From a bacterium (GTDB taxonomy: Bacteria; Patescibacteriota; Doudnabacteria; UBA920): 64,000 nucleotides of DNA. Of this stretch, positions 714 through 50,574 are shown piece after piece (position 1 is the first letter of the stretch; each line of letters begins with the position of its first letter). The stretch is taken from the NCBI GenBank assembly GCA_016699995.1, contig CP064996.1, positions 528,584 to 592,583 of the forward strand, written 5' to 3'. Both the position numbers and the translations under genes were made by a program. A model generated the notes under the pieces. The model was not told the DNA's origin. It was given only the letters and a program-made list of their open reading frames with translations, and ran no database searches.

Positions 714-807
714 GCTTGCACAAAGCCCAGTGTTGTGATAAAAGTATAGGATAAGAAATCCTGATGGATTTCTTAAAATTGCATATTTACAACCAAAAAG
801 GAGGTAA
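714..807. repeat. left arm of ~95-bp inverted repeat; carries 9-4-9 palindrome aagaaatcc-tgat-ggatttctt followed by aaaattgcatatttacaaccaaaaaggaggtaa (RBS) immediately upstream of the 811 start codon
   Basis: Reverse complement of 6645-6737 aligns to 714-807. The distal 57 bp are identical, including the flipped palindrome loop. The proximal part is ~85% identical. Confidence 0.85.
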
Positions 808-810
808 GTT

Positions 811-1347
811 ATGAAATCCAAGAATGAGTATTTTATGGCAGCCAATTCGGAGCCACGTGCAATAATCACAGGGATGACCACTGGCCGTGAATTTTCTGTT
901 CGTGAATATACGTACGGAGTCCTTGTGCCAGACAGCAGTCACCCACTCTCGTGCGTCAGCGTGTCTAACAGCTCGTTGAGCATAGATCTATGGGTTGGAT
1001 GCTCTTGGCAGTGTAGATATTGCCACGTCCAAGACACGCATCAAGATCTCGCAGATCAGGGCACAATGCCCAAAAGACCGAGGCAACGCACTCAGTTCAC
1101 TGTTGATCAAATCATTGATGAACTGATTAAACATCCATTTTTTGTTGCTGATGAGACAATCATCAGCATTGGAACAGCAAGCACTGAACCGTTTGCACCC
1201 GGACCTGTTACTGACAGTACGTTTGAGATTATGGATGCATTCGTGCGTCGAGGTCTTCGAAACCCTTTCTGGATCGTCACTAAAGGCGGTGTTCCGAAAG
1301 GAAAAAAGAAGACATTGCCCGTATTACAAACGCAACACGGGGCCTGA
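811..1347 (+). CDS. radical SAM domain protein (CxxxCxxC; SplB/COG1533-like 'GCxxxCxYC' context), 178 aa
   Basis: WVGCSWQCRYCH motif is C-x3-C-x2-C preceded by G, as in SPL-like radical SAM enzymes. Strong RBS aaaggagg 8 nt upstream. Stop TGA overlaps next ATG (TGATG). Confidence 0.5.
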   Translation: MKSKNEYFMAANSEPRAIITGMTTGREFSVREYTYGVLVPDSSHPLSCVSVSNSSLSIDLWVGCSWQCRYCHVQDTHQDLADQGTMPKRPRQRTQFTVDQIIDELIKHPFFVADETIISIGTASTEPFAPGPVTDSTFEIMDAFVRRGLRNPFWIVTKGGVPKGKKKTLPVLQTQHGA

Positions 1348-2045
1348 TGTTGTCTCTATGTTGGGCAGATAATCCTAATACGATTGAGCCCGCTCGCAAC
1401 AATCGCTTCCTTAACGCAGAAGAGGCAAAAGAGGCTGGCGCTACTATCGCATGGTACATGCGGCCGATAGTTCCTGAATGGAGCGGGAACAGGAATCGCA
1501 TCGAAATGATGATGCTCTGGGCCAAGAAGCACTACGGCAACGTCATTGATATGATCATACCCGGAGGATTGCGTTGGACTGAAGGTATTGAGAATGGACT
1601 GGTGGGAATTCATAAACTCCCCATGCCAAACATTCCACGGGATGACAATGTAAAGATGCTACCTCAAGATCTGATAGACTTTACCTTTTCCTTGAGCGCC
1701 GAACACTTCCCTGGAATTCCTGTATACCTCAAATCCTCTTGCGCACTTACTAGGATGCTCAAGATCCCAAGTATTACTTCGGTTCATGCATTTGCCAAAC
1801 ACGAATGCGAGGAGTCTCGTTGCCCTATTGCTCAGCGACAAATCTGCGCTAACGGAGCAGCATATTCCATGAGCACAGAACGAGCCCAGGCAATATTAGA
1901 TGATCTCGGGATTCCAGCTCATGTCCTGAGCTGGGATATTAACCACGGACTTGTCACTTACCCCGAGATGAACAAGTTCACCTACGCAGTCAGGCAGACT
2001 ATATTCAAACATTTGGCAATGGGAGATTCACATGAAGTTGTATAA
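1347..2045 (+). CDS. hypothetical protein, 232 aa; possibly C-terminal half of a split radical SAM enzyme (translationally coupled to 811..1347)
   Basis: ATG overlaps the upstream stop codon. No recognisable motif. Cys-rich (CPIAQRQIC). Confidence 0.35.
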   Translation: MLSLCWADNPNTIEPARNNRFLNAEEAKEAGATIAWYMRPIVPEWSGNRNRIEMMMLWAKKHYGNVIDMIIPGGLRWTEGIENGLVGIHKLPMPNIPRDDNVKMLPQDLIDFTFSLSAEHFPGIPVYLKSSCALTRMLKIPSITSVHAFAKHECEESRCPIAQRQICANGAAYSMSTERAQAILDDLGIPAHVLSWDINHGLVTYPEMNKFTYAVRQTIFKHLAMGDSHEVV

Positions 2046-3891
2046 TGAAATCAAAGATCACTTCAGAACCTACGGTTTCAACTGGCAAGACAGTGTTCCG
2101 ATCTTGAGTTCAAATCCTAAACTCCTGTTCAATATTTCAGGCGGTGTAATATTCGAAAGCACGATCTCTGATGGAGTGACCCCAGAGAAAGCCCGTGTCG
2201 TTTCGGTGCAAACCTGCCTCAGAACTGATGGCTGGGAAAAGATAGGATACTCAGGACGGCATCATCTGGCATTCGACATGCTAGGCCACTTTTCCCTATA
2301 CGAAGACAAAGAAGACAAGGTGAAAGGTGTGATGATAGAAAGTGCTTGGAACTATTTGACCCAACGTCTGGGCATTAATCCGGGCCTCTTATCGGCAACC
2401 GTTCATCCGCAAGACACAACATCGCAAAAATTTGGAAAAAATTTCGGTGTAAAGACTGCCGCTAACGATGGCAATGTCACTTACACTCCGACCAGAAACA
2501 GATGCGGCGTCCGCACGGGAGATTGTCTGGCAAAATCCGCATACGAATAAATCAATCGAACTCTGGAACTTGGTTTTTACCCAGTTTGAGGGAGATGCTC
2601 TATTCAAATCTCCGTTGGAAACAATCGCTGCCGATTCTGGAGCCAGTATTGATCGCATCGTCACTGCAATCGAATGTAGCCGAAGCGATTATGAAAACTC
2701 CAACTGGAAAGGCATAGTCGAATCAATCACTGAGCGATCCAAAGTTCAAGATCAAGCCATCATGTGTCGCTTAGCCGATCTAGGTAAAGCATCAACGCTG
2801 CTAGTATCTCAAGGGCTTAGACCTGGAAACAAAGCAGCTGAATACGTTCTTCGGAAACTCATCCGAGAGGCTTACATTCTCTGTCGGCAAACCTCGATTC
2901 AATTCGATGAGTTTGCTGCGATATCAGAAAGTCATTGGTCTCCGTCCGCTGCGGTTCAAACCGTACTTATCGAAGAAGTGTCAAAGTTCGAGAAAGGTCT
3001 CGAACGTGGGAAAAGAGAATATCAAAACTCATATCCCGCAAGACAATTCCCTTGTCGAATCGGATATAAAATATCTAGCATCTACGTTCGGCTTTCCAAA
3101 AGCTTTAATCGAACTCGAGGAATCGAAACGAAAGGAGGCGAAATGAAAAATCTCGTTTCCGAACTTGCTCGCATTCTGCGTGAACTACAAGGCTTACAAG
3201 TGCTAGTACATGTCGGATTGAAAAGAGATTCTTCTAAGGACAAAGTCGATCTCTTAGCGGGCTGTGATCAGGGAAGGATTGAAACATATTCCCCCTCATT
3301 GATTCCCTCCTAAGAAAACGATGGCCCGTTGGGAACTTCTCCGTTTGTGACGACAGTGTTCGCGGACCTATCATCAGGTACGGGCGGCATTGCAGTATGC
3401 GATGCTAGTCTGCTTATCGAGCAGGTTCAAGAATGGATAGAAGGCAAAAATTGGGCGGACAACACCGCTCCTGGGCAACTGGATATTGGTTGCCGGAGGC
3501 GTTATGTGGAGACTTGGCAACGGCAGAAACCCTATATGACAAGACTGGCATCAATGATAAATTAAAAAAACTACTTGTTCCCTATCCAGCTTCGCTCTCG
3601 AAATTTATCAGTGAGCTATGCATAGACGAGATCAGGCAAAAACAATCGACATTCAAAATGCTGCACGAAAATGCAACAATCGAACGTCAGCTATGCCTCT
3701 CGGATATCTCGGCTTCGTTGGTGAGACTTGCATTCGCTCGCAGCCACCAATACCTTCGCGGATTCCGCTCACTTGAGAAACAAGCGAAACTGCTTGAGTT
3801 TTCAGATCTGCCTATTTATGGGCTTGCCTTGGAGATTTCAAAGGGCACAAGAGTAAAATCGATGATGAAAAGAATTGAGGAACTACTCTAA
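2032..3891 (+). pseudogene. divergent alanyl-tRNA synthetase-like gene (catalytic + tRNA-recognition region), disrupted by >=2 frameshifts and with degenerate motif 2
   Basis: ORF 2032..2550 has AlaRS N-terminal signatures: LLF, VQTCLR (cf. SQRCVR) and GYSGRHHLAFDMLGHFS (cf. GYTARHHTFFEMLGNFS). ORF 2468..3313 has IELWNLVFTQF (cf. EIWNIVFMQF), a motif-3-like DSGASIDRIV, and RPGNKAAEYVLRKLIREA (cf. PSNEGRGYVLRRIIRRA). ORF 3433..3891 has AETLYDKTGI (cf. AFRLYDTYGFP). The frames are 1, 2, 1. The GPCGPC of motif 2 is replaced by LTLRPETD. Confidence 0.7.
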
Positions 3892-4530
3892 TTATAGAGG
3901 TATACGAAAGTGTGCCTCTTTTTTTATTCAACAAGGGTCTTTTTCCATTTTCAATAAAAATAGCCTGCGAGTTATTTATTCTCTCAACACAGACCTTGTA
4001 TTTTTCTTCAAAAGCTTTTGCTTGTTCCTCAATATCTGAAGAATAGTGCGGTAATACGATAAGGTTTGTGATCCCAAGCCCTGTATAATCTTCGAGACCA
4101 ACCTCGTTTTTATCTGCAGAAACTTCTCCGGCAATTTCGATTGATGGACCAACAATAATACTTCCTGCGCTGACGCCTATATATATCCCATTTCGATCTA
4201 GCAGGCTTTCGATTGATGTCTTAAAGTTTGATTTTCGAGCAAATTTAAGAAGTTTGAAAGTATTACCCCGCAAACATAGATAATAGCGTATTGAGTAAAA
4301 TCCCTATCGGGTTCGGTTTCAAGGTCTATAAAATCAATATGCGAGAACCCCATCTCCACAAATTGTTCCTTGGCGAGTTGAGCGTATTTATTATTTTCTT
4401 TTTCTTCTGCAGCTGTCGTGACTATAGCAACGGAATAATTAATATAATTTAAAAATGAGCCCTTAAACCTTTTGATAACCGGCTCGGAAGAAAATCCAGT
4501 TGATGTTAGAAATATAAAACCTTTAACCAT
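3812..4530 (-). pseudogene. pepE: peptidase S51 (dipeptidase E / PepE-like), frameshifted at a G-homopolymer
   Basis: N-terminal ORF 4198..4530 ends ...AIIYVCGV. C-terminal ORF 3812..4273 reads GNTFKLLK...IYIGVSAGSII (GxSAG serine nucleophile motif). The junction falls in the conserved GGGNT, where the sequence has tgcggggtaat. One more G would restore the frame. Confidence 0.65.
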
Positions 4531-4559: not shown

Positions 4560-4603
4560 TTAAAAAAAGACCTGCCTCGTGGTTTACACAAAGCAGGTCT
4601 GGG
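4560..4603 (-). terminator. rho-independent terminator downstream of the alaS-paralog
   Basis: Minus strand reads cagacctgc-(loop)-gcaggtct followed by ttttttt. Lies 8-50 nt after the stop at 4611. Confidence 0.6.
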
Positions 4604-4610
4604 TATTTTA

Positions 4611-5903
4611 TCACTTCTTAGGTCGGCGTGATACGTTCCGATGATCCTCGATAAGTTTAAGAAACTCCACCTTCGGAAAAGTTATGTCATGACGCTCACA
4701 AAATTCTTCCAGGAGGTCCTCGGGAATACCTATACCGGTTTTTAACGTGAATGCTTGATGTGCATCCAATTCTTTCGCCGCGACGATTTTGTCGAGATAC
4801 TTTCCACTGCGATTCATCAACTTTTCAAAACTGACCCGTTCTTCGCTGATCCAATGTGCGATAACAGATTTGTGACGAAAAGTTAAATCCTTGTTATCAA
4901 TCACTTGGCTAAGAGAATCCACCCACTCTTGGAGAATAGTCAGATCAATTCCTCGTAGAAAGATGCCTATCATCGCTCGCCGTAACGCGCGACGGAGAAG
5001 GTATCCCTCCCCAGTATTGCTCGGAATGATACCCTCGCGAATCATCAAAATCGAAGTTTTGACATGGTCAAGGATAATCCTCGTCCATGGCATGTCGCCA
5101 ATTCGCTGGTTAATAAGAAGGTAAGACGATTCATATTGGTCGATCTCATGAATCGAAGCGCGGTCTTGCAGGATCATGGCAAAACGCTCAAGACCTGCAC
5201 CTGTGTCTACACACTTCATCGGGAGCTGGGAGAAATTCTGTTGTTCATCCTTGAAGTATTGCATGAACACCCCGGCATTCCAGATTTCGATGTGTCGCCC
5301 AGGCACCAACATATCATCCGTCTCCTCCTCAGCAAATTCCTCGCCACGATCAAAGAAGACTTCCGTGCAAGGACCGCATGGGCCGCTGGTTCCCGCCGGA
5401 CCCCAAAAATTATCTACTGGTGGCCTACCAATGATTCGATCCCGCGGCAGGAATTTCTCCCAGATTCGAGCAGATTCTTCGTCGTCCGGAATACCTGGGA
5501 GACTGTCGTCAGCAACGAATACTGTGGCATAGAGACGGCCAGCTGGAATACCAAACCCTTCGGTAATGAGCTCAAAAGCAAATTCGATGGCTCGCTCTTT
5601 GAAGTAGTCCCCGAAAGACCAAGAACCCATCATACGGAAGCTAGTCCCGTGATAGGAATCACCAATGCTTTCGACATCGACAAATCGGATGCAATCCTGC
5701 ACATTGGTCAGACGTGGATAGGGCGGTTTAACTTGGCCAGTAAAATAAGGCTTAAGCGGGGCCATACCAGAGTTAATAAACATAAGGGTCGGGTCATTCT
5801 CGGGGATGATACCCGATTGCTTGATAAGCCGGTGATCACGCTTGAGAAAATAGTCCAGAAAAGTCTGGCGCACCTCCTCAGTGGTCTTAGATGGCAATTT
5901 CAT
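4611..5903 (-). CDS. alanyl-tRNA synthetase paralog, catalytic/aminoacylation domain only (430 aa; no editing or C-Ala domain)
   Basis: Full class-II AlaRS core: ENDPTLMFINSGM, VQDCIRFVDVESIGDSYHGTSFRMMGSWSFGDYF, motif 2 GPAGTSGPCGPCTEVFFD, IEIWNAGVFMQYF, motif 3 DTGAGLERFAMIL, YLLRRALRRA. Stops after the tRNA-recognition region. Own RBS (ggag) and own terminator. The start overlaps the AKR stop by 17 nt. Confidence 0.8.
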   Translation of the reverse strand: MKLPSKTTEEVRQTFLDYFLKRDHRLIKQSGIIPENDPTLMFINSGMAPLKPYFTGQVKPPYPRLTNVQDCIRFVDVESIGDSYHGTSFRMMGSWSFGDYFKERAIEFAFELITEGFGIPAGRLYATVFVADDSLPGIPDDEESARIWEKFLPRDRIIGRPPVDNFWGPAGTSGPCGPCTEVFFDRGEEFAEEETDDMLVPGRHIEIWNAGVFMQYFKDEQQNFSQLPMKCVDTGAGLERFAMILQDRASIHEIDQYESSYLLINQRIGDMPWTRIILDHVKTSILMIREGIIPSNTGEGYLLRRALRRAMIGIFLRGIDLTILQEWVDSLSQVIDNKDLTFRHKSVIAHWISEERVSFEKLMNRSGKYLDKIVAAKELDAHQAFTLKTGIGIPEDLLEEFCERHDITFPKVEFLKLIEDHRNVSRRPKK

Positions 5904-6673
5904 AATTCTTCTCCTTTAAGGTGCCAATATTTCGTGTGATTTGCTCCTCTGTTGTCATACCAATAACGACAGATGATCCAAGTGCTAACGCATTTTGTAT
6001 AATCATTTCAGCGGAGCGTGTACTAGTGAGCAATTTTCCTTGTTTGAACAAACTTCTCAGTAGAACCTCCTTCTTAGAATCCAGTAGATATGGAAGCTGT
6101 TGAAGGACCCAAGTCTGCTCAATATTAAAGGGAGCTTCCACTATGTCGATGTACGGCAAAACCGTTTCAGAGACAGGGTATAAAAAATTGTCAGGTAAAG
6201 AGATTCCTACACGCTTAACAACACCTTCATTCTTGAGTCCATTCAGGCATTCTAGGATTGCTTCCTGCTTTCTGATGACCATGTCGGCAACCAGTTATGC
6301 AAAAGCACTGCATCAATAGAAGATCGACGCAACCTTTCCAAGGATCCGTACAAACTTCGATGTATATTGCCTTGTGAGTAAAATCTTTCAATCGGTTCAG
6401 GTCTTCTAGATTCGGTTTGATTGCTGCGGGAATTTTAGTCACAATGGTCACATCTTCGGGCAGACATGCGCCGAGCATTGCTTCGACTTTGCCTCCCCCA
6501 TAGACGGCCGCCGTGTCAAAACGGCGAATGCCAGACCTAACAGCGAAAAGCAAAAGCGATTCGATGTACTCAGTAGACAAATTTTTGAATTGCCCACCAA
6601 GTTGCCACGTACCGAAGTAGAAGCCGATTAGACCAATCCATAAATTACCTCCTTTTTGGTTGTAAATATGCAA
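5887..6673 (-). pseudogene. aldo/keto reductase, split into two overlapping ORFs (frameshift near 6282)
   Basis: 6227..6673 has LIGFYFGTWQLGG...FDTAAVYGGG, the AKR N-terminal signature. 5887..6282 has ILECLNGLKNEGVVKRVGISLPDN, the AKR 'GkirylGvSN' region. The two reading frames overlap by 56 nt. Confidence 0.6.
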
Positions 6674-6737
6674 TTTTAAGAAATCCTGATGGATTTCTTA
6701 TCCTATACTTTACCACAATACTGAGCCTCGTGCAAGC
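6645..6737. repeat. right arm of the ~95-bp inverted repeat (inverted copy of 714-807), supplying RBS/start context for the minus-strand AKR gene
   Basis: See left arm. The palindrome plus aaaaaggagg module faces inward on both sides. Confidence 0.85.
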
Positions 6738-9842: not shown

Positions 9843-10855
9843 ACCCTAACTATAACCTTATCCAAATCTATTCTAGGACTAAAATGAGGCATATCTGGAC
9901 CATAACCGATTCTAAAAAACATTTGAGGTCTCGTACTGATGCCTAAAGCTTGTTTAACCAATTTATAATTATCTCCTATTTCGATAGGTGCGCCCATTAT
10001 TCCAATTCTTAAACCTAAACCCTCCGCTTTTAAAGCTATTTTCTCGAAAGACATACCTGCCTTAACCCAAGCGCTTTCGTTATCTTCTACAGTACTGATA
10101 ACACCATACACTGGTGCATTCTTAAGCCACTCTTCGTGCATCTTGGCTTGAAAGTTTTGCAAGTTAAAATTTCTAATTGCAAATGGTAATAGGTAAGAAA
10201 TTAATTTTGGCACGCCGATCGTGTAGCCAGGCATACCGTCCCGATACTTAACAGAACTTGGCTTTACCCAAGCTGATAATTCGGTAGTAAACTTCTTATC
10301 TGCAAAAGCTTCTTTAACCGATTTAGAAACAATATCTCTAATGGACTGTTTCTGATTTTCTTGGCTCACAAAAGTTGAAACTATTCCCTCTAAGCACTCA
10401 GCAGCCATTTCATCCAATATGGATTGGTCTATTCGTCTGTCTTCAAGAGGCAGTCGGTTAGTTTTACGGTTTACCAGATTATCAAAAGCTTTCTGATCGA
10501 TTGAAGATGATGCTAGAGATTGATAATAAATTGTAAAAATAGTGTTCTTATCAAAATCGAAATTATACTCTGCATCATACTTCAAGCCTAAAGAATCTGA
10601 TCCGTGCAGTAAATTCTGGATCGCTGCGCCGATGCTCAGAAAAAGCTGGCGGTTATTTTCGTCGGAATAAGGTAATTTTCGATCGAAGTTTGCTTTGACA
10701 GTTATTGTTTTATCTCGAATCTCAAAAAGCCATGGTTGAGTATTATGGCTCGAGGGTGCTAAAGATGCTAATAGAACCAAAAAATCCAATCTTGCAGAAT
10801 CTGTTTGTAATTGGTCGTATTTTTCTATTTTTATTTCTGTACGAGGATTGTACAT
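9839..10855 (-). CDS. nitroreductase-family protein (tandem/extended nitroreductase fold), 338 aa
   Basis: SSHNTQPW (SxHNxQPW nitroreductase signature) near the N-terminus. Start overlaps the HK stop (ATGA-type coupling). Confidence 0.6.
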   Translation of the reverse strand: MYNPRTEIKIEKYDQLQTDSARLDFLVLLASLAPSSHNTQPWLFEIRDKTITVKANFDRKLPYSDENNRQLFLSIGAAIQNLLHGSDSLGLKYDAEYNFDFDKNTIFTIYYQSLASSSIDQKAFDNLVNRKTNRLPLEDRRIDQSILDEMAAECLEGIVSTFVSQENQKQSIRDIVSKSVKEAFADKKFTTELSAWVKPSSVKYRDGMPGYTIGVPKLISYLLPFAIRNFNLQNFQAKMHEEWLKNAPVYGVISTVEDNESAWVKAGMSFEKIALKAEGLGLRIGIMGAPIEIGDNYKLVKQALGISTRPQMFFRIGYGPDMPHFSPRIDLDKVIVRV

Positions 10856-10880
10856 TTAATTTATTATACCACAAAATTGG

Positions 10881-10904
10881 AAAAACCGGCCGGGCCGGTT
10901 TTGT
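10881..10904 (-). terminator. rho-independent terminator right after the ammonia-lyase remnant stop
   Basis: Minus strand: aaaaccggcccggccggttttt plus T-run. Confidence 0.6.
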
Positions 10905-11180
10905 TTAATTCTGAATTAAATCCTTTTTTAGTTTTTCAATCTCTTTGTATATCAAAGCGTCGTCAGCATAGAAAGGAACCTTTGATCTCACATATTCATA
11001 AGTTTCAGCATTGCCTTTACCAGCCTTTAATGGACTTCGCAATTCAACAGCCTGGGCAGCTGCCGCTAACTCGACTACCAAAATTTCAAATGCCATGTTT
11101 ATAATGTCTCTGCATTTTCGAGCAGCGGTCGTCGCGAAGCTTACGTAGTCTTCCTGGTTAGCAGAAGTAGGGATAGAAAC
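10905..11180 (-). pseudogene. hutH: C-terminal remnant (~90 codons) of an aromatic amino-acid (histidine/phenylalanine) ammonia-lyase; 5' part missing
   Basis: Minus-strand frame reads IPTSANQEDYVSFATTAARKCRDIINMAFEILVVELAAAAQAVELR..., matching the HAL/PAL C-terminus (SIPTSANQEDHVSMG..AARK; AIELLAAAQALD). The frame opens at a stop immediately adjacent to the res gene end at 11180. Confidence 0.6.
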
Positions 11181-13780
11181 TATTCAAGATCATCCAATTC
11201 TTCTAATAAATTTTCTAATTCACACCTAAATTTTTCTTGGCCTTTTAATATTCTCCCATCCTTCAAATACTCAAAAAATGTAGAATATCCTTCTGGACTC
11301 AAGAAATGAAAAATGTATTTTTGTTTAATTTTATTTTCCTCTAATTTATTGTTCAACCTCTCAAAATGTTCTTTCGCATATTTGTATTTTGCCTTGTTTT
11401 CATCGCTGTCGTCTTTGTCCGCTTTTATCTCAACAACAACAAAATAATCTACATTATCTTTTGTGATCTTGATAAAGAAGTCAGGATTAAACATCCCAAT
11501 CTTTTGGTGATTTGATGGTCTCCATGAATACTCAATGCCATAAAATCCACGATCCCGAGATTTTAACCACGCATCAATTTTCTCCGCAATATCCTTTTTG
11601 CAAAGGTTCTCGATGAATCTTCGTTCTGGTTCTGCGTTAGAAAAAACAACATTGACGGGGGTCTTAAACAAAAACTCATTTTGTTCCTTGTCGGCACTCT
11701 TGGGGAAACTCTCATCTTCTTTGAGCTTCTGCATTATGTTTCGTTGTTCATCGTCAAAGATCTCATTCTCCCAGTTGTTTGTGTAGAATAATGAATATCC
11801 ACGCCTAAAATTACCAACACCAGAACTTTCGCGGATGATATTTTTTGTAGAAATAACAACGGGTTCATTTACTTTTAATTGTGGCACAACTGTCTTGCTC
11901 TTTTTTCGCAGAAGTGTAGCAAAGGTATTGAGAATCTTATTGACATTTTTTTCGATGATTTGATCACCCTTAATACCAACGTTTTTCATGGATTTGAGAA
12001 TGATCTCTCGGATTTTTTCTTTCGGTGGGAGGTTATTTTGTGTGTACTGCTCTTCCCCGAGTTTCAATATTCTTCCTTCCCAATCTCTAATCTCAAATTC
12101 CTCATAGATTCTGTCCACCACTTCTTGAACAGTCCAAGTTCCGTATTCAATAACATAATTCTTCTCCCGAATATCTTTCGCAGTTATTGATTCATAAGAG
12201 GTGCCTTTTTCTGTTTGTATCACTTGAGAATCCAATTTGATACCTTCTTTTTCAATACGAGAATAATTAACAACTGGATTGGGTTTGTGTTCTACTTCCA
12301 CTTCTTCTTTGGTGTAATCAAGATTGTAAACATCAAAATGATATTTTGATCGGTCATCATTCTTAACAATCTCACTGATTATTCGAGTTTCGATTTCCAA
12401 CACTTCATCAACAAGAGCTTTTATACCTCTGCTCCATGCGTCATGGTTAAAAACAATGATTTTTGGTTGAGGAGTTGTATATGCCTCTGGTAAACGCAAA
12501 CCGCGCCCCAATACTTGTGCGATAAGAAGTTTAGAATTAAACGCCTTATCTTCCCATGGAACGATTTGAAAAACGTTTTTAACATCCCAACCTTCTGTAA
12601 GCATCGAGACAGAAACAATCCATTCAGTCGGATTTTCTCTATGATCAACTGTTTTCAATTTTGATAAATTGCCTTTATGATCCTTATGAGAAGTAACAAT
12701 CAAAACTTTTTCTTCAATACTTTCACGAGGTCGCCCCTCTCTCTTTTCAAGGAAATCAAGCAAATCTTCCATTAAACTTTTTGCCTTGGAAATATCTTTA
12801 GTGATCAAAATTGAAAGAGGTTTGATTTTTGGGTACTTATCAATATTCTCCTTGTGGTTTTGATATATTTTTTGGAACTTTTCATCAGTCCCCGAACTGT
12901 CATCTTTTTGTACATATTCAATATTCTTTACTATTCTATCTTCAATGGCTTCGCGCAAAGAATAGCGATAAATAACATCGTTAAAGTACTCGTTGTCATG
13001 ATACGCTGTACCAGTAAAACCAAGAATGTAACGAAAGTTGAAATCTAGATTTAATAAAAACTCCTTCCACCGCTTCAAACCTTGCGCTTCTGTTGTATTG
13101 CCAGATATTTTATTAAAAATATGGTGAGATTCATCATTAAGCACTAAAACGCGCTCGCCTTGTCTTTGGAAACTATCCTTAATCGATGACCCAGTTGTTT
13201 CATAAACTGCATGGATATTTTCAACACAAATACTTCCGTTTTTGACAGTGATATTTGCATCAACAATGCTTGGGTTTTTATAAAGAGCATTCGCTGGTAT
13301 CGATTTTTTGATTCGTGCATTCCCACTCAAATCCTCAAACTTCTCCAACAGTCCGTCTTCAATCGTCAAAGATGGGCAGAGTACCAAAACTTTATCTACC
13401 AAGCCTAACCCAAGCATGATTTGTGCCACACCATAAATTACATACGATTTTCCTGTACCAGTCGCTAAATCAATGTTTGCAAAAAGTTTATTAGGTAGCT
13501 GTAAATGGTGATGGTAATCGCTAAGGGTCGGATACTTTTCTTGCAGTTCGGGATTTTTATTGTAATTCTCATGTACTAAATCCTCAGTAGTAACATAACG
13601 CCCAGATGCAAGAAAGATAACCGCGTGTTTTATTGCTTCCTTTTGGTATTCTCTGTCTACACACAAGGTATCCAAAAAAGAATCCCATGCGCCCAAATCT
13701 AACTTTGTCGGATCATAGTTTTGATTCACTTTTAGAACCAAGTCTTTTTGTTTGTAAGTTTTAATATCCTGCATAGTCAT
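11180..13780 (-). CDS. res: Type III restriction endonuclease Res subunit (SF2 helicase + C-terminal PD-(D/E)xK nuclease), 866 aa
   Basis: Walker A LATGTGKSYVIYGV. DEAH-like VLNDESHHI. Helicase C motifs. C-terminal DFFIKITKDNVDYFVVVEIKADKDD nuclease-like motif. About 33% GC. Confidence 0.85.
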   Translation of the reverse strand: MTMQDIKTYKQKDLVLKVNQNYDPTKLDLGAWDSFLDTLCVDREYQKEAIKHAVIFLASGRYVTTEDLVHENYNKNPELQEKYPTLSDYHHHLQLPNKLFANIDLATGTGKSYVIYGVAQIMLGLGLVDKVLVLCPSLTIEDGLLEKFEDLSGNARIKKSIPANALYKNPSIVDANITVKNGSICVENIHAVYETTGSSIKDSFQRQGERVLVLNDESHHIFNKISGNTTEAQGLKRWKEFLLNLDFNFRYILGFTGTAYHDNEYFNDVIYRYSLREAIEDRIVKNIEYVQKDDSSGTDEKFQKIYQNHKENIDKYPKIKPLSILITKDISKAKSLMEDLLDFLEKREGRPRESIEEKVLIVTSHKDHKGNLSKLKTVDHRENPTEWIVSVSMLTEGWDVKNVFQIVPWEDKAFNSKLLIAQVLGRGLRLPEAYTTPQPKIIVFNHDAWSRGIKALVDEVLEIETRIISEIVKNDDRSKYHFDVYNLDYTKEEVEVEHKPNPVVNYSRIEKEGIKLDSQVIQTEKGTSYESITAKDIREKNYVIEYGTWTVQEVVDRIYEEFEIRDWEGRILKLGEEQYTQNNLPPKEKIREIILKSMKNVGIKGDQIIEKNVNKILNTFATLLRKKSKTVVPQLKVNEPVVISTKNIIRESSGVGNFRRGYSLFYTNNWENEIFDDEQRNIMQKLKEDESFPKSADKEQNEFLFKTPVNVVFSNAEPERRFIENLCKKDIAEKIDAWLKSRDRGFYGIEYSWRPSNHQKIGMFNPDFFIKITKDNVDYFVVVEIKADKDDSDENKAKYKYAKEHFERLNNKLEENKIKQKYIFHFLSPEGYSTFFEYLKDGRILKGQEKFRCELENLLEELDDLE

Positions 13781-13783
13781 ATT

Positions 13784-15748
13784 TTATACGGTGAAAATTT
13801 CAGCAAAGTCATTACCGTAAACATCAGTATAAATCACCATTATTTGCTTTCCCAATTCAGATTTTTTGAACGAAATTTCTAAACCCTTCTTCTCTATTTT
13901 CTTAAGTTCTGATTTTATATCCTCGTCATCGTCTTCTTTTTTATTTGCTTTCTTTGGCAAAAGTTCATCAGCAAAAAAAGCGTCATCCATTTCGAATGCT
14001 TTTCCATTGTAGCTTTTATCAACAAAGACAGCAGATAGGGTTTCGAAATTTTTCATCCCTTTCTCGTCTTGTGATTTGTCGGATTCAAGTTCTTGGCTAG
14101 TAAAACTCTTAATTAAGATTTTTACTCTATCCTTGTCTTTCTTTATTTCCGACTTTACTTCGGGATGTCGAATAAAGTGGAAACCAATCGCTTCTTCCAA
14201 ATCGTTCACATTCTTTTTACTTTGCGGTTGTCGCAATTTTAGGAATGGTGTTTTGTGGAGCTCTTTAATTACATGATATGGAATCTTGAGGAAGTAGTAT
14301 TTTACCCCGTCAATTTCATGGTAGTTAGAGAGAAAATCAACAAAGTTTGCTGGGGCAATAATATACACGCGACCACTTGCTTTCTTTCCGACAACTGCAT
14401 GTACATCTTTCAGATATTTTTCGTTAATTGTAGAGTTTTTGAAAGTTTGATAATCAAAAATCTTTACTGGGAAATCGCCTTTCATACCCTCAAATTCAAA
14501 CCCCGCAATTTTGTTTTTCTTGATTTCCACTTCAAAAAGCCCAGAGACAAACTCTTGATATTTTTGCCATTCCAAATCAAGTGCTCTTTTTAGATCATAG
14601 ATACCGAGTTGAGCAGTAACAAAACTTTTTGATTTCTTCCCGTACTTTTTATTTTGATCTTCTAAATCCTTTGAATTTTCAATTTGCAAAATGCGCTTTT
14701 GCATTGTGAAATAGGAAAGCTTACCTAGGTCACATGTAATCCATTTTCGTCCTAACTTTTCGGCTATATAAGCGGTTGCGCCAGAACCACCAAAAAAATC
14801 CATCACAATATCGCCTTCAACTGAAGCCGCTTTGATTATTCTCTCGATAAACTTATTTGGCTTCTCTGTCGGGTATCCAGTTCTTTCAACACCGTCTACT
14901 CTCAAACGAGCGGCGACTGAAAACTCCCACCAATCTTCTGGAACTTTTCCCTTTTTTCTTAATTCCTCCAAATCTTCCTCATCCCATCCTTCACCATCAT
15001 CAAAAGCAGTACGAAATGATTGATTAGGGTCTTTGTAAGGAACCCTGATCTGATCTTTGTTAAAAGTCCATTTATCCGATTTTGAGTACCAAAAAATCGT
15101 ATCGTGTTTCCTATTAAATTGCTTCATTTTAGGCGATCCTGGGCCTGTATATACCCAAATAATTTCATTCACAAGATGAAGTTCGCCGAATATCTCATCC
15201 AGTGCCAATTTTATGTAATGAGATTTTTTGTAATCGAGGTGGACAAATATACTTCCATCATCTGCCAATATTTCTTGTGCTAAAATAAGTCTACGTCGCA
15301 AAAACTCAACAAATTCTGCACCTTTCTTTTTGTCATTGTAAGCTTTTGCTCCTTCTTTGTTTAAGAAATCATCGGTAGTCGCAAAAGGTGGATCTATATA
15401 AATAAGCTTTACTTTTCCTTTCACCTTATCTTTTATCAGAGGGTCCTTATTTTCGTAAATGGTTTTAAGGAATTGCAGATTATCACCGAACACGATCATA
15501 TTTTTCCATCCATCCTTAAACGATTCGTATTCATTGCCATTGAAAACTTTTTCAGTTTGAAGAGGGACAGGGAAAACACCATCCTCATTTGCAAGCAAAT
15601 CTTCTTTTCGCATCTTCCCAGCATATACCAACTCATACTCTTTTTGAGTTGTTGGGAAAAGCAAGTATTTAAAATCGAATGGAATTTCTCTCCCGTCTTG
15701 TAGTGTTTTAACTAAAAATTCTGTATCAAATTTAGTGAGTTTTTTCAT
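13784..15748 (-). CDS. mod: Type III RM Mod subunit, N6-adenine (beta-class) DNA methyltransferase, 654 aa
   Basis: Motif IV IYIDPPFAT (DPPF/Y). Motif I VMDFFGGSGATAYIAEKLGRKWI. Immediately upstream of res, on the same strand. AT-rich. Confidence 0.85.
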   Translation of the reverse strand: MKKLTKFDTEFLVKTLQDGREIPFDFKYLLFPTTQKEYELVYAGKMRKEDLLANEDGVFPVPLQTEKVFNGNEYESFKDGWKNMIVFGDNLQFLKTIYENKDPLIKDKVKGKVKLIYIDPPFATTDDFLNKEGAKAYNDKKKGAEFVEFLRRRLILAQEILADDGSIFVHLDYKKSHYIKLALDEIFGELHLVNEIIWVYTGPGSPKMKQFNRKHDTIFWYSKSDKWTFNKDQIRVPYKDPNQSFRTAFDDGEGWDEEDLEELRKKGKVPEDWWEFSVAARLRVDGVERTGYPTEKPNKFIERIIKAASVEGDIVMDFFGGSGATAYIAEKLGRKWITCDLGKLSYFTMQKRILQIENSKDLEDQNKKYGKKSKSFVTAQLGIYDLKRALDLEWQKYQEFVSGLFEVEIKKNKIAGFEFEGMKGDFPVKIFDYQTFKNSTINEKYLKDVHAVVGKKASGRVYIIAPANFVDFLSNYHEIDGVKYYFLKIPYHVIKELHKTPFLKLRQPQSKKNVNDLEEAIGFHFIRHPEVKSEIKKDKDRVKILIKSFTSQELESDKSQDEKGMKNFETLSAVFVDKSYNGKAFEMDDAFFADELLPKKANKKEDDDEDIKSELKKIEKKGLEISFKKSELGKQIMVIYTDVYGNDFAEIFTV

Positions 15749-16279
15749 ATAAATTCTATTTGAGTCCCAAAAAAGTTAATCGAGATAAGTGAAACCATTT
15801 TACCATAAATCACACCTTAAATAAAGGGTTTTAGAGTGACCAAACCATCATTCGGCGTCATTAATCCGTTGCTCGCAAATGCAGAACATACTAAACTGAC
15901 ACCTGACGAGTTTAAAACAACTAAGAAAGTGAGATGCTGTTCTCTGCTCCCCCTAAATCGACAGAACAAGATGAACCGGAAGCTTTTTCTATCTATTCCG
16001 AAATAAGGGAAATGATGAATATGACATATAGGAAAAGCCTACATACCGAGAGATTGTAGAGAATTCATTCAGCAAAGAACTCCCGTGCCATTGAATATTA
16101 TCTGTTTCGCAGGAAGAAGCCCCAAAAACAGCTCGGCAACCTTGGGATTACTTTAGCTTCCACACACCGAATCCTTCTTTTAATTTATGATAATAGCACG
16201 TATATTAATACAGTGAAATTTGGCTCTCACGAGGAATAGCTTGTACAAACCATTTTTAATATAATTTTAATTTAATTTC

Positions 16280-28695: not shown

Positions 28696-29217
28696 CTAGT
28701 CGCCCTTTTCGCCTGCGTCTTTGGCGAACTCAACGCTGTCTCCGCCGTAAACGACATAGTCATTGTTGACTTCCTGGCCATTAACGTAGGCTTTAGCCGC
28801 CGGAGAAATACTCAAAGCATCTCCCAGCTTGCCGCGCAGAGCGCGAATGGTCATGCCGCTCACGTTAAGCGACTTCTGGTGAGCGCCGCTGACAACTTGG
28901 ACAGCGGTGGCACCCGTGGCTTCGGCCAAACCGGTAGACTCGAACGCGATGCGGTCGCCGGCCTGGATCGTGTAATTATCACCGATCTGCTCGCCCGAAA
29001 CAAACGCTTTGTGGTGCTTGCCCAGGCTGAGGCTGGCGCCGTACTGGTCGCGAATGAAAAAGATCGATTTACCGACTGCGTCGGACTCAGGGATGTTGAT
29101 CACATTCCCGTCACACGACACCTCGATAACGTTATCCCTCGTTTCATCAAACAGATCCGCAAACATGTTACCGCCTGCTTCCGTAGTTTCCATATCAAAT
29201 TCGTTTTCATTTGCCAT
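28696..29217 (-). CDS. tandem ThiS/MoaD-like beta-grasp (ubiquitin-like) protein, two ~65-aa Ubl repeats after a ~30-aa leader, 173 aa
   Basis: Repeats ...ASLSLGKHHKAFVSGEQIGDNYTIQAGDRIAFESTG and ...DALSISPAAKAYVNGQEVNNDYVVYGGDSVEFAKDAG match the ThiS consensus (vavNGe.v.....l.dGD.vei). Preferred start ATG at 29217 (MANENEF) with GGAGG ~15 nt upstream, 8 nt after the E1 stop. The track ORF extends to 29343 but overlaps E1. Confidence 0.6.
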   Translation of the reverse strand: MANENEFDMETTEAGGNMFADLFDETRDNVIEVSCDGNVINIPESDAVGKSIFFIRDQYGASLSLGKHHKAFVSGEQIGDNYTIQAGDRIAFESTGLAEATGATAVQVVSGAHQKSLNVSGMTIRALRGKLGDALSISPAAKAYVNGQEVNNDYVVYGGDSVEFAKDAGEKGD

Positions 29218-29224
29218 AGTTCTT

Positions 29225-29968
29225 TTATAGTTCCTCCATACTTTTTGACGAGACCGCTCTTTGAGCAAGCCCCTTGATACTACAATATACAATATCCGGG
29301 AAAAAAGGCTTCTCGGTATAGTACACATTGTAGAAAACTTCACCCATTAGTGCCGCCACCCGCCAGTTGGTGAAAATCAGTTGGGGGGCTCCTGCGACAG
29401 CCAGTTCTTCACAACCGGCTTCGCCTGGATTCTTATCCTTTGGATCACCGATCGAAGGCGAGCTTTCGACTAGGGATTTAGTGAAATTTTCACCATCTTT
29501 CCTAATGTACAGCTGTACGCTTCCGTCGTCAAACTCATTTCCGCCGCAGATCATCACCGCATCGGCGAGATCTTCGAACCGTTCGGAAAAGAGCTTTCGT
29601 GAAGCATTATTATCCACTCCCATGAACACCAGATCATTTTCCCGGACATGCCGGTTGATGTTAGCCTTGGTTACGTACTCCATGACTGTCGATATTCTGA
29701 GATTGGTAAAATGCGCGACTTGATCTCTCAGAAGCTCGGCCTTATAGCCAAGCCCGTTGAAATTTTGTCTGGTAAAATTCCGTTCTTCTACTTTGTCGCC
29801 ATCGATGAGGACGATCTCCGTCTTTTCTCCACCTTCCTTATGGGCAAAGTGCAGAAATCGGCATAGGGGCGGGACAAGCCAGCCCCCAATGCCGCCACAT
29901 CCAACCACGACAATGCGGTTGAATTTATTGATCATTAGTTCCCTCCTTAACTGCCGTTTCAGTTGCAA
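29225..29968 (-). CDS. minimal E1-like (ThiF/MoeB superfamily) adenylyltransferase, 247 aa
   Basis: NRIVVVGCGGIGGWLVPPL...IVLIDGDKVEERNFTRQNF is the E1 nucleotide-binding signature. No rhodanese or Cys-rich C-terminal domain. 5' end overlaps JAB gene by ~44 nt. Confidence 0.75.
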   Translation of the reverse strand: MQLKRQLRRELMINKFNRIVVVGCGGIGGWLVPPLCRFLHFAHKEGGEKTEIVLIDGDKVEERNFTRQNFNGLGYKAELLRDQVAHFTNLRISTVMEYVTKANINRHVRENDLVFMGVDNNASRKLFSERFEDLADAVMICGGNEFDDGSVQLYIRKDGENFTKSLVESSPSIGDPKDKNPGEAGCEELAVAGAPQLIFTNWRVAALMGEVFYNVYYTEKPFFPDIVYCSIKGLAQRAVSSKSMEEL

Positions 29969-42844: not shown

Positions 42845-44626
42845 CTATTCAATCACAGCCTTAATGCGGCGCACTCCTGCAGAAACAGCTTCTTCTTTGG
42901 TAATTTTGAATTTGCCTACTAAGCCAGTATGCTCAACGTGCGGTCCTCCGCAGAATTCGCGAGAGATCACATTGCCGTCTTTATCTGTTGCAGTATAAAT
43001 AGATACAGTGTCGGCATACTTTTCTCCGAACAAGCCAATCGCACCAAGTTCGCGGGCTTTATCTAACGGCATCATTTCCTGTTCCATTTTGGCATCCATC
43101 ACAATCCACTTATTCACTAGCTCTTCGACCTGGGCAATCTGTTCCGGAGTCATCTTTTGCGGGTAAGTAAAATCAAAACGGGTACGTTCGGCGGTAATAT
43201 TACTCCCTTTTTGCCATACGTCATTGCCTAATACATCGCGCAAAGCTTTATGCATTAAGTGAGTAGCTGTGTGCAAGCGCACAACTTTTTCGCTATGATC
43301 CGCCAGACCTCCTTTAAATGTGCCGGCGCTGGCAGTACGGGACAAGTCCTGATGAGCCTTAAAGCCTGCTTCGAATTCTTCTTTATCTACTTCCTGTCCT
43401 GCAGCCTGGGCTAATTCTTCGGTTAACTCCAAAGGGAAACCGTAAGTTTGGTACAAGTTAAATGCGTCGGTACCGCTCAACGAGCCTTGCTTTTCGAACA
43501 GCTTGGCAAATTCCTTTAAACCTTTCTCCAAAGTCTTTTCGAACTTTTGCTGTTCGCCTTGCAGGCTTGCAAAAATCTTTTCGGAGTTAGCAATCAATTC
43601 CGGATAAGCATCGCCATATTCTTCCATTACCTTTCCAATCAGCGCTTTCATCCAGTGTTCGTTCAAATTCAAACGGCGGGCATAAACCATAGCTCGGCGC
43701 AGCAGGCGGCGCAAAATATAGCCGCGTTCTTTATTAGATGGCTCTACTCCATCGCCGCTAATAAATACCGAAGCGCGGATATGGTCTACAATAATTCGCG
43801 CTTGGCGAACCTCGTCGCCGGACAAAATTGCCTGGCTCTTGCCGATAACTTCGAACATCCCTGTGAAAAATTCAGAATCATATACAGACTTATGTCCGTT
43901 AAGAACCGCAATCACACGGTCTAAGCCCATACCAGTGTCTACATTCTGCTTTTCTAAAGGAACCAGGCTGCCATCAGCTTTCTTTTCGAACTGCATGAAC
44001 ACATCGTTCCAGATTTCTACCCAGCGCGGGTCGCTGGCTGTGTCCTGAAAATTTTCGGGCGCAGGAGTACCGTCATCTATCCAATAAAACATTTCTGTAT
44101 CCGGGCCGCATGGGCCAGTGGTGCCGGCAATCCACCAATTATCCTCTTTGCCAAGCTTAGCGATGCGCGATTCGGGTACGCCTAAGCGCTTCCAATGTTC
44201 GTAGCTTTCTTCATCAAATGGCGCATCGTCATCTCCGGCAAAAACTGAAAATGCTAAACGATCCAAAGGAATATTCAGCCATTTTTCTGATGTTAAAAAT
44301 TCGTAACTCCATTCGATTGCTTCCTTTTTAAAATAATCGCCGAAGCTCCAGTTGCCCATCATTTCGAAAAAAGTAAGGTGAGTATTATCGCCTACGTCAT
44401 CAATGTCGATGGTGCGAATACATTTTTGAACATTGGCAACGCGGGTGCCGCCCGGATGTTCCTGGCCCATCAGATATGGAACCAAAGGAAACATTCCGGC
44501 CATGGTAAACAATACGGACGGATCGTTTTCCGGCACCAAGGATGCGGACGGGATAATAGTATGATTCTTTTCTTTAAAAAATTCGAGCCACTTGCTGCGT
44601 AGCTCATTTGCTGTGATTCTAGACAT
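42845..44626 (-). CDS. alaS: alanyl-tRNA synthetase (catalytic + tRNA-recognition + editing domains; no C-Ala domain), 593 aa
   Basis: Motif 2 GPCGPDTEMFYW. Motif 3 DTGMGLDRVIAVL. Editing-domain HTATHLMHKALRDVLG (HxxxH) and CGGPHVEHTG. Confidence 0.9.
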   Translation of the reverse strand: MSRITANELRSKWLEFFKEKNHTIIPSASLVPENDPSVLFTMAGMFPLVPYLMGQEHPGGTRVANVQKCIRTIDIDDVGDNTHLTFFEMMGNWSFGDYFKKEAIEWSYEFLTSEKWLNIPLDRLAFSVFAGDDDAPFDEESYEHWKRLGVPESRIAKLGKEDNWWIAGTTGPCGPDTEMFYWIDDGTPAPENFQDTASDPRWVEIWNDVFMQFEKKADGSLVPLEKQNVDTGMGLDRVIAVLNGHKSVYDSEFFTGMFEVIGKSQAILSGDEVRQARIIVDHIRASVFISGDGVEPSNKERGYILRRLLRRAMVYARRLNLNEHWMKALIGKVMEEYGDAYPELIANSEKIFASLQGEQQKFEKTLEKGLKEFAKLFEKQGSLSGTDAFNLYQTYGFPLELTEELAQAAGQEVDKEEFEAGFKAHQDLSRTASAGTFKGGLADHSEKVVRLHTATHLMHKALRDVLGNDVWQKGSNITAERTRFDFTYPQKMTPEQIAQVEELVNKWIVMDAKMEQEMMPLDKARELGAIGLFGEKYADTVSIYTATDKDGNVISREFCGGPHVEHTGLVGKFKITKEEAVSAGVRRIKAVIE

Positions 44627-49871: not shown

Positions 49872-50285
49872 TTAAATTTTCATCAATCCGTAAAGCTTGA
49901 GCAAATAGTTGCGCTGCTTATAATCCACAAATTTTGCGGCCATGGCCAATTTAAATTCCGCACCATGGTTTAAGTAAATCAGATGCAGGCATTCATGAAA
50001 TACAACCAGTTCCACTAATGATTGCGGAAGCAACTTAAGCTTAGTATTAAAAGACAAAACCTTATGTTCGCTGCAGCTGCCCCAGCGGCTCTTCATAGTC
50101 CGAAACTTAAGCTGCTTGTAATCTGTCTGAAGTTCGGTCGTGTATTGCGCTACCAAATTAGCCACCCGCAGTCGAAACAAGTTTAAAGGCACATAAGGCA
50201 GTGGGTTTTGTTTATACTCAGCCTTAAGCTTTTTTAAATCTAACTGTAAAGACGGGTTCATATTTTTGATCGTTTTCATCGACAA
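49872..50285 (-). CDS. YgjP/DUF45-like (SprT/WLM-type) predicted zinc metallohydrolase, short form, 137 aa
   Basis: HECLHLIYLNHGAEF (HExxH) near the C-terminus, in the DUF45 context. Confidence 0.5.
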   Translation of the reverse strand: MSMKTIKNMNPSLQLDLKKLKAEYKQNPLPYVPLNLFRLRVANLVAQYTTELQTDYKQLKFRTMKSRWGSCSEHKVLSFNTKLKLLPQSLVELVVFHECLHLIYLNHGAEFKLAMAAKFVDYKQRNYLLKLYGLMKI

Positions 50286-50574
50286 GCTCCACTGTTTCGC
50301 CCGACATCAACTGATTAATCGCCAAGTCAGACATGAGTTCGTTGTCATTCTGAATATGCATTTTATAAGCTTCTAGTTTTTGAATCTCGCCCTGTAAATC
50401 CGATTTAATATCGGCTTCTATGCTCTTCTTGCGCGCTTTTAAATTCTCTAGCTTTTCTAATAGCTCCTGATATTCTTTATGCTGAGTTAATTCATCTTTA
50501 TATAGAGCGCGAATTTCCTTTTGCTTGCGCTTGGTTTCTTTTATTCTCGCAAAGACAGTCTGCAGGTCGTTCAT
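50224..50574 (-). CDS. hypothetical coiled-coil protein, 116 aa
   Basis: Heptad-rich KETKRKQKEIRALYKDELTQHKEYQELLEKLENLKARKKSIEADIKSDLQGEIQKLEAYK. Overlaps the downstream gene by 62 nt. Confidence 0.4.
   Translation of the reverse strand: MNDLQTVFARIKETKRKQKEIRALYKDELTQHKEYQELLEKLENLKARKKSIEADIKSDLQGEIQKLEAYKMHIQNDNELMSDLAINQLMSGETVELVDENDQKYEPVFTVRFKKA

Follow-up and report, generated by a model that had tools for sequence, protein, structure and literature searches.

A free-standing alanyl-tRNA synthetase catalytic fragment adjoins a second synthetase-like gene in a conserved cluster of Patescibacteria

The window analysed here is a 64,000-nt stretch of contig CP064996.1 (positions 528,584 to 592,583 of the forward strand; GenBank assembly GCA_016699995.1) from a Doudnabacteria member of the Patescibacteria, or candidate phyla radiation (CPR). 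The gene under study, which we designated AlaA, lies on the minus strand at 4611..5903. It is intact, starts with ATG and encodes a 430-aa protein that consists of the aminoacylation and tRNA-recognition domains of alanyl-tRNA synthetase (AlaRS), as judged by its open reading frame (ORF), Pfam and NCBIfam searches and structure alignment. A Shine-Dalgarno sequence (AGGAG, 5911..5915, minus strand) was found 7 nt 5' of the ATG, and an intrinsic terminator with a 14-bp stem and a T7 tail (4568..4600, minus strand) was found 3' of the stop codon. AlaA matched PF01411 (tRNA-synt_2c) with an E-value of 2.3e-103 over profile positions 1-430 of 552, and it scored below the NCBIfam equivalog cut-offs of both alaS (TIGR00344; 355 versus 457 bits) and PRK01584 (319 versus 529 bits). 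Its residues 5-426 aligned with the crystallised catalytic fragments AlaRS453 of A. aeolicus (1RIQ) and AlaRS441 of E. coli (3HXU), indicating that AlaA ends at the point at which an editing domain would follow. The domain boundaries are equal, but those fragments are laboratory truncations, whereas AlaA is a natural, conserved gene. AlaRS fragments of this extent are aminoacylation-competent. Pfam gave no match to the editing domain (PF07973, tRNA_SAD, HxxxH/CxxxH) in AlaA; because the gene is followed by the terminator and then by a peptidase S51 gene, no editing domain is hidden in another frame. A first-pass annotation made from the sequence had described an intact standalone gene with its own ribosome-binding site and terminator that ends at the would-be start of the editing domain, and these points were all confirmed.

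We then compared the active site with that of E. coli AlaRS, using a residue numbering checked against an enterobacterial AlaRS. AlaA retained the equivalents of R69 (CIR), W170 (DNFW), N212 and V214 (EIWNAGVFM), and D235 and G237 (VDTGAGLER). The GPCGPCTE loop was kept as well, and so were RIIxDH and PSN...YLLRRALRR of the tRNA-recognition domain. An alignment of 13 family members, 40-74% identical to the window protein, contained 83 invariant columns spread over both domains, and every one of these residues was present in the window AlaA. The class-II catalytic motifs, which the first-pass annotation had reported as present, are all in place, and the closer residue check revealed no inactivating substitutions. 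Changes next to the pocket were GMG to GAG and NAGM to NSGM in the family, and TFFEM to TSFRM in the window subfamily only. The residues that recognise the acceptor stem gave a divided picture. The Asn303 equivalent (PSN) was invariant in the family, but the Asp equivalent to D400 (YDTYGFP) was replaced in the window subfamily (TLKTGIGIP); a second AlaA subfamily retained it. In work of Naganuma from 2014, E. coli D400 is said to be one of the two AlaRS residues that read G3:U70. The one-residue insertion WN-AG-VFM was considered as a signature of AlaA or a sign of altered specificity and was rejected, because a metagenome motif scan returned mostly canonical AlaRS of 590-900 aa.

The window also carries a housekeeping AlaS (42845..44626, minus strand; Pfam, NCBIfam). 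This gene had been called a full alaS; it is real, but it encodes a 593-aa 'small' AlaRS with catalytic, tRNA-recognition and tRNA_SAD editing domains and no C-Ala domain, not the full 870-aa enzyme. It scored above both equivalog cut-offs, with 771 bits (PRK01584) and 624 bits, and its motif-2 loop is four residues shorter than that of E. coli-type AlaRS. Small AlaRS of this kind (CPR, DPANN and Asgard; PRK01584) share the motif-2 loop deletion with AlaA but keep the editing domain, which AlaA lacks. AlaA was 35% identical to the window AlaS over 441 columns. In an exhaustive search of a 50%-representative library, its best three matches were short proteins (419-433 aa), directly followed by full-length AlaRS with 40-43% identity. 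AlaA is therefore no closer to the AlaS of its own genome than to AlaRS of unrelated phyla, which indicates that it is old, and a recent duplication of alaS was rejected. In a rough neighbour-joining tree calculated without support values, the window AlaA subfamily formed a separate long branch, and the second subfamily stood beside the CPR-type small AlaRS.

A homolog search returned more than 100 clusters of proteins of 417-440 aa, down to 40% identity to AlaA. All listed AlaA relatives with a named source were from Patescibacteria/CPR (Saccharibacteria, Paceibacterota, CPR3). The single label from outside the CPR among the listed relatives, Syntrophomonadaceae, was attached to a homolog of a cluster partner. 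Some AlaA relatives are named 'alanine--tRNA ligase-related protein' by NCBI, and the identical protein in the deposited genome is 'hypothetical protein IPM19_02890 [bacterium]' on a 943-kb contig. We also considered that AlaA might be the 5' half of an alaS broken by misassembly, as the first-pass annotation had cautioned. This was rejected: more than 100 homologs on independent contigs (many of them short-read) have the same fixed length, the terminator and the S51 gene lie downstream, and the identical protein has been deposited. Scanning genome contigs with the GPCGPCTE pattern yielded at least 80 loci; all those listed were canonical alaS genes, mostly of about 840-965 aa, with two intact small AlaRS of 591-592 aa among the 80. 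The phage and plasmid collections contained canonical alaS only, with 27-36% identity to AlaA. A preprint on small AlaRS (bioRxiv 10.1101/2023.05.29.542759) covers the 593-aa type only, and no publication on this CPR AlaA family was found in the literature. Judged from its sequence, AlaA is a real, intact and ancient AlaRS paralog without an editing domain.

AlaA is surrounded by five partner genes that form two convergent operons with it. The plus-strand operon begins with a radical-SAM (rSAM) gene (811..2045), whose product has a fold like that of spore photoproduct lyase (SPL), a CxxxCxxC motif and four conserved C-terminal Cys residues. It is followed by AlaB (2032..3146), a second, diverged and truncated AlaRS-like gene, and by a gene (3143..3891) for a protein of about 250 aa with a kanamycin-nucleotidyltransferase-like fold, that is, a Pol-beta nucleotidyltransferase (NTase) plus a helical domain; relatives of this protein are 238-251 aa long and belong to no Pfam family. 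The minus-strand operon contains a short aldo-keto reductase-like (AKR) gene (5914..6673) upstream of AlaA, then AlaA with its terminator, and the S51 peptidase gene (PepE-like; 3929..4530) downstream. In relatives, the intact AKR protein is 244-246 aa long, about 80 residues below the usual AKR length, and retains the D-Y-K-H tetrad. The S51 protein, 201-202 aa in relatives where it is intact, retains the GxSAG serine and the His; by inspection, it has no obvious N-terminal signal peptide. A terminator-like hairpin (3896..3919, plus strand) separates the two operons. No tRNA gene or known RNA element was found within the cluster, and PADLOC anti-phage defence models gave no match for seven cluster proteins.

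Elsewhere in the window, positions 10000-16000 have a lower GC content (0.36 versus about 0.45) and encode an 866-aa ResIII/SNF2-type helicase, with a weak C-terminal match to a TnsA-like endonuclease, and a 654-aa ORF. It is a possible restriction or defence island of horizontal origin.

AlaB proteins are 358-410 aa long overall, and 358-382 aa where intact in relatives. They align with the catalytic and tRNA-recognition domains of AlaRS (PF01411 positions about 8-404). AlaB retained the equivalents of R69, N212 (ELWNLVF / EIGNLIH), D235 (DSGAS / DVGIG) and G237, the motif-3 Arg and the YVLRR helix. The GPCGPC loop was missing, and in one of the two cluster types described below (type I, that of the window) W170 was missing as well.

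The same partners recurred in shuffled order around five AlaA homologs from independent assemblies: the AKR protein (222-246 aa), the rSAM enzyme (399-406 aa), AlaB (358-382 aa), the 238-251-aa protein and often the S51 peptidase (about 201 aa). We built hidden Markov models of the partner families from these loci and screened 120 metagenome loci. AlaB was found in the locus for 15 of the 23 complete short AlaA ORFs. Counting only loci flanked by 1.3 kb or more on each side gave 9 of 10, and the remaining one was a truncated duplicate of an AlaB-carrying contig. AlaA thus almost always adjoins AlaB, and this context is the new point of the present analysis. Because gene order is shuffled between lineages, the linkage is not merely inherited synteny. 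The first-pass annotation had noted that a radical-SAM gene and a second AlaRS-like gene adjoin AlaA, and they do; it overlooked that both are frameshifted, and it mentioned the second AlaRS-like gene only in passing, missing the pairing as the key feature.

The loci fell into two types. Type I has six genes (AlaA, AlaB, rSAM, AKR, NTase-like and S51) and comprises the window and loci L001, L003, L005, L007, L097, L115, L139, L144, L150, L156 and L164. Type II, with AlaA and AlaB, comprises L006, L092, L121, L128, L135, L145, L183, L198 and L203. All nine type II loci encode a SAM-dependent methyltransferase, eight of the nine an S66 peptidase, and they also contain either two dCTP-deaminase-like proteins or an S-adenosylmethionine (AdoMet) decarboxylase; some add a diaminopimelate-decarboxylase-like protein or an AsnRS-core/AsnA-like protein. 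The S66 peptidase, methyltransferase, dCTP-deaminase-like and AdoMet decarboxylase genes of type II are absent from the window. Both types share a core of AlaA, AlaB and an S51- or S66-type Ser-His peptidase, and both carry nucleotide-type enzymes. The reading of AlaA as an intact, ancient paralog that lacks editing, looks expressed and probably serves a non-ribosomal process is partly supported; these data narrow it to one member of a conserved AlaA/AlaB pair in a tailoring cluster. Two further genes were seen in type II loci. The AsnA-like protein of L121 (444-1547), also found in L198 and L203, is a 367-aa AsnRS catalytic core without the anticodon-binding domain, and is a third free-standing class II aminoacyl-tRNA synthetase (aaRS) paralog in that neighbourhood. 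Inside the cluster of L135 (5393-6463) lies a reverse-transcriptase (RVT_1) ORF, probably of the group II intron or retron type.

Both operons of the window start with the same leader, which appears as a 73-nt inverted repeat with 93% identity between its arms. Arm 1 (741..813, plus strand) is the leader of the rSAM operon and contains a 10-bp hairpin or palindrome (TAAGAAATCC-N4-GGATTTCTTA), a ribosome-binding site and the ATG; arm 2 (6639..6711, minus strand) is the same leader before the AKR-AlaA operon. The hairpin had a folding z-score of about -4. Promoter-like hexamers were read by eye just 5' of the leaders, but a consensus promoter scan listed no site there. Relatives with the same gene order had inverted-repeat arms of 198 nt (100%; L005, 7073-7270/13107-13304), 462 nt (100%; L115, 7101-7562/13388-13849) and 105 nt (90%; L156, 1004-1108/6948-7052), with sequences that differ between genomes, and the short-read contig L007 terminates in the repeat at both ends. 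No inverted repeat was found in relatives with single-operon gene order. The first-pass annotation had placed AlaA in a segment bounded by an inverted repeat. The repeat is real, but a reading as a mobile-element boundary found no support: each arm comprises the leader and start codon of one operon, and such arms occur only with the convergent order. We read the repeat as a leader that was duplicated and has been kept identical by recombination. The near identity of the arms within a genome, together with leader sequences that differ between genomes, suggests ongoing gene conversion or inversion of the segment of about 5.8 kb, and a near-identical leader on both convergent operons implies their co-regulation.

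The partner genes of the window are interrupted by changes of frame. We found one in the rSAM gene (1281-1305, in an A6 run), two in AlaB (about 2517 and about 3050), at least one in the NTase-like gene (about 3300-3450), one in the S51 gene (near 4267) and two in the AKR gene; AlaA has none. The partner genes, about 4.4 kb in total, thus contain at least seven frame changes, compared with intact ORFs of up to 1632 aa and at most two or three suspicious ORF pairs in the remaining 57 kb of the window. Same-strand ORF pairs that overlap by 119 and 62 nt, at 28696-29968 and 49872-50574, are possibly the only other frameshift candidates. With frame changes at this density, AlaA would escape by chance with a probability of about 0.1, a non-significant value. 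Since no partner gene is free of frameshifts, this genome may lack an active pathway, or the assembly may have a local fault.

These data raise the possibility that the cluster of the window is a decaying remnant, inactivated by frameshifts, in which AlaA is intact by chance and has no current function; such a history would be compatible with any of the roles discussed below. The contrast with the long ORFs of the other 57 kb fits decay, as does the deposited annotation, which lists the partner-gene fragments as separate proteins. However, the frameshifted genes matched their intact orthologs about as well as these matched each other (rSAM, 82-87% versus 81% among orthologs; AlaB, 68-70% versus 76%), and no in-frame nonsense codons were found in the partner genes away from the frame-change junctions. 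Several of the frame changes sit in homopolymers (A6, C5, A5, C4), as is expected of consensus errors if the contig is a long-read assembly, and the window AlaA keeps all residues that are invariant in its family. We consider a decaying remnant unlikely. The frame changes would be either local consensus errors, assuming long-read assembly, or the marks of very recent decay.

The neighbourhood also bears on whether AlaA simply serves translation. As an auxiliary AlaRS, it would charge tRNA-Ala without proofreading, either as a stress isoform or with AlaS editing in trans, and its neighbours would be unrelated. The complete active site and an extent equal to that of active AlaRS fragments agree with such a role, and one AlaA subfamily, which is not that of the window, stands beside the CPR-type small AlaRS in the rough, unbootstrapped tree. 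Nanoarchaeum equitans provides a precedent: its AlaRS is split, with the catalytic part encoded as a separate polypeptide, as in AlaA. There, however, the editing/C-terminal half is the product of the second gene and the organism has no other AlaRS, whereas AlaB is a second catalytic-domain paralog and an AlaS with an editing domain co-exists in the same window. A complete small AlaS is thus available in the genome, the equivalog cut-offs are not reached by AlaA, and an enzyme without editing would add a Ser/Gly mistranslation load. In addition, the linkage of AlaA with AlaB and tailoring enzymes persists although gene order is shuffled, and AlaA shares its leader with the rSAM operon. A purely translational role is, in our judgement, distinctly unlikely. 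A non-ribosomal role, which the first-pass annotation had raised as an alternative, suits the conserved neighbourhood better than bulk translation does. Its further suggestions, that AlaA might mischarge Ser or Gly or might supply cell-wall tailoring, are speculative.

The closest characterised system is the ascamycin cluster of Streptomyces sp. 80H647, with AcmD, AcmF and AcmE, although membership of the AlaA/AlaB cluster in that system is not established. AcmD, a second AlaRS encoded in that cluster, charges tRNA-Ala and is less sensitive to the pathway product (Zheng et al. ACS Catal 2024; PMC12945691, PMC4257720). AcmF, a 370-aa protein with aminoacylation and tRNA-recognition domains only, is inactive in activation (N219Q, D232E) and moves Ala from Ala-tRNA-Ala to the sulfamate nitrogen of dealanylascamycin, and AcmE hydrolyses the alanine off again (PMC12945691, PMC4257720). 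The two systems are alike in having two AlaRS-derived proteins per cluster, one with an intact active site (AcmD; here AlaA) and one truncated to the aminoacylation and tRNA-recognition domains (AcmF, about 370 aa; AlaB, 358-410 aa), together with a candidate de-alanylating hydrolase, radical-SAM/Fe-S enzymes and nucleoside-type enzymes. They also differ. AcmD is a full 871-aa AlaRS, and AlaA lacks the editing and C-Ala domains; AcmF, as published, has lost the ATP/Ala residues that AlaB keeps. The cluster genes include no sulfate adenylyltransferase, APS (adenosine phosphosulfate) kinase or sulfatase and have instead the SPL-like rSAM, the AKR and the kanamycin-nucleotidyltransferase-fold protein, and the host is a CPR genome of about 0.9 Mb, not an actinomycete.

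Type II clusters bear a further likeness to the microcin C genes, which include the S66 peptidase MccF, MccD and MccE, an MccB-like ThiF enzyme and a precursor peptide. Their S66 peptidase, SAM-dependent methyltransferase-fold enzyme and decarboxylase of AdoMet or PLP (pyridoxal phosphate) type recall aminoacyl-nucleotide chemistry. However, they encode no MccB-like ThiF protein or precursor peptide, and their S66 protein is LdcA-like (97 bits, below the cut-off). No microcin C-like genes were found in the window.

By analogy with ascamycin, AlaA and AlaB may form an AcmD/AcmF-like alanyl-transfer module that acts on a nucleoside- or nucleic-acid-type acceptor. We hold this reading tentatively, at a little short of an even chance. 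AlaA would use ATP to activate L-alanine (or a very similar analogue) and would charge tRNA-Ala with it, giving the pathway its own source of aminoacyl-tRNA, possibly from an enzyme copy insensitive to the pathway product; the presence of a housekeeping AlaS with an editing domain in the same genome was counted in favour of such a role. AlaB, which has retained the tRNA-recognition helices, would transfer alanine from this donor to an acceptor other than a protein. That acceptor would be made or tailored in type I by the SPL-like rSAM enzyme, the short AKR and the nucleotidyltransferase-fold protein, and in type II by the methyltransferase with the dCTP-deaminase-like proteins or the AdoMet decarboxylase. 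Judged by these co-clustered enzyme families, the acceptor would be a nucleoside, a nucleotide or of nucleic-acid type. The serine peptidase of clan PC (S51 in the window, S66 elsewhere) might strip the alanyl group for activation, immunity or recycling.

Several observations weigh against the alanyl-transfer module. The partner genes of the window carry the frame changes described above. The D400-equivalent Asp, implicated in G3:U70 recognition, is not conserved in the AlaA subfamily of the window. AlaB keeps the Asn and the Asp that are mutated in AcmF (N219Q, D232E), as well as both class-II Arg residues, so it may itself adenylate its substrate and not act as a transferase. Sulfamate genes and other recognisable genes of nucleoside-antibiotic pathways are missing from the cluster, as are genes for a carrier protein, a transporter or a tRNA. 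Finally, AcmE is an alpha/beta-hydrolase, a fold different from that of S51/S66, and these peptidases could equally serve peptide or peptidoglycan recycling.

Some of these points would suit ligases that work without tRNA, in which AlaA, AlaB or both form an aminoacyl-adenylate and directly acylate a small-molecule amine or hydroxyl, or a protein. Such tRNA-independent aaRS paralogs have precedents in AsnA, PoxA/EpmA and the SerRS-like amino acid:carrier-protein ligases. In AlaB, the motif-2 and motif-3 Arg and the N212 and D235 equivalents are retained but the GPCGPC loop is gone, as is W170 in type I, a pattern that suits adenylation of a changed substrate. The loss of the D400 equivalent in the window AlaA subfamily, and the AsnRS-core/AsnA-like protein near the pair in three of nine type II loci, also fit. 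However, both AlaA and AlaB have the whole helical tRNA-recognition domain, and PxN...YxLRRxxRR and RxIxDH are invariant across the family. Such a domain would be expected to decay if no RNA were bound, which counts against ligases of this kind, as does the lack of a carrier protein in the clusters. We regard tRNA-independent ligation as improbable.

Free-standing aaRS paralogs repeatedly carry out non-translational chemistry, as in AsnA, PoxA, GluQRS, the amino acid:carrier-protein ligases and, recently, AcmF and SbzA. In the present case, a naturally occurring AlaRS catalytic fragment keeps a length of about 430 aa across many contigs, nearly all of them CPR where a source is named, and is paired with AlaB in genomes of less than 1 Mb that have little non-essential metabolism. 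If AlaA merely charges tRNA without editing, it would be a natural test case for tolerance of Ser/Gly mischarging on tRNA-Ala. If AlaA and AlaB are an alanyl-transfer module, aminoacyl-tRNA-dependent tailoring would reach beyond actinomycete antibiotic clusters, and the pair would offer a handle on the interaction between CPR episymbionts and their hosts and natural compact enzymes for making aminoacyl-nucleoside analogues. A bolder and rather doubtful proposal is that the paired truncated AlaRS paralogs of CPR bacteria are an unrecognised aminoacyl-tRNA- (or adenylate-) dependent module that, together with the SPL-like rSAM enzyme, the reductase and the nucleotidyltransferase, builds an alanylated nucleoside or nucleotide. 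Its product could be an aaRS-inhibitor-like 'Trojan horse' directed against the host bacterium, or an amino-acid-appended modification of a DNA or RNA base, with AlaA as the product-insensitive supplier and the S51/S66 peptidase as the de-alanylase. If true, these minimal episymbionts would have a first dedicated pathway to a bioactive nucleoside or to hypermodification.

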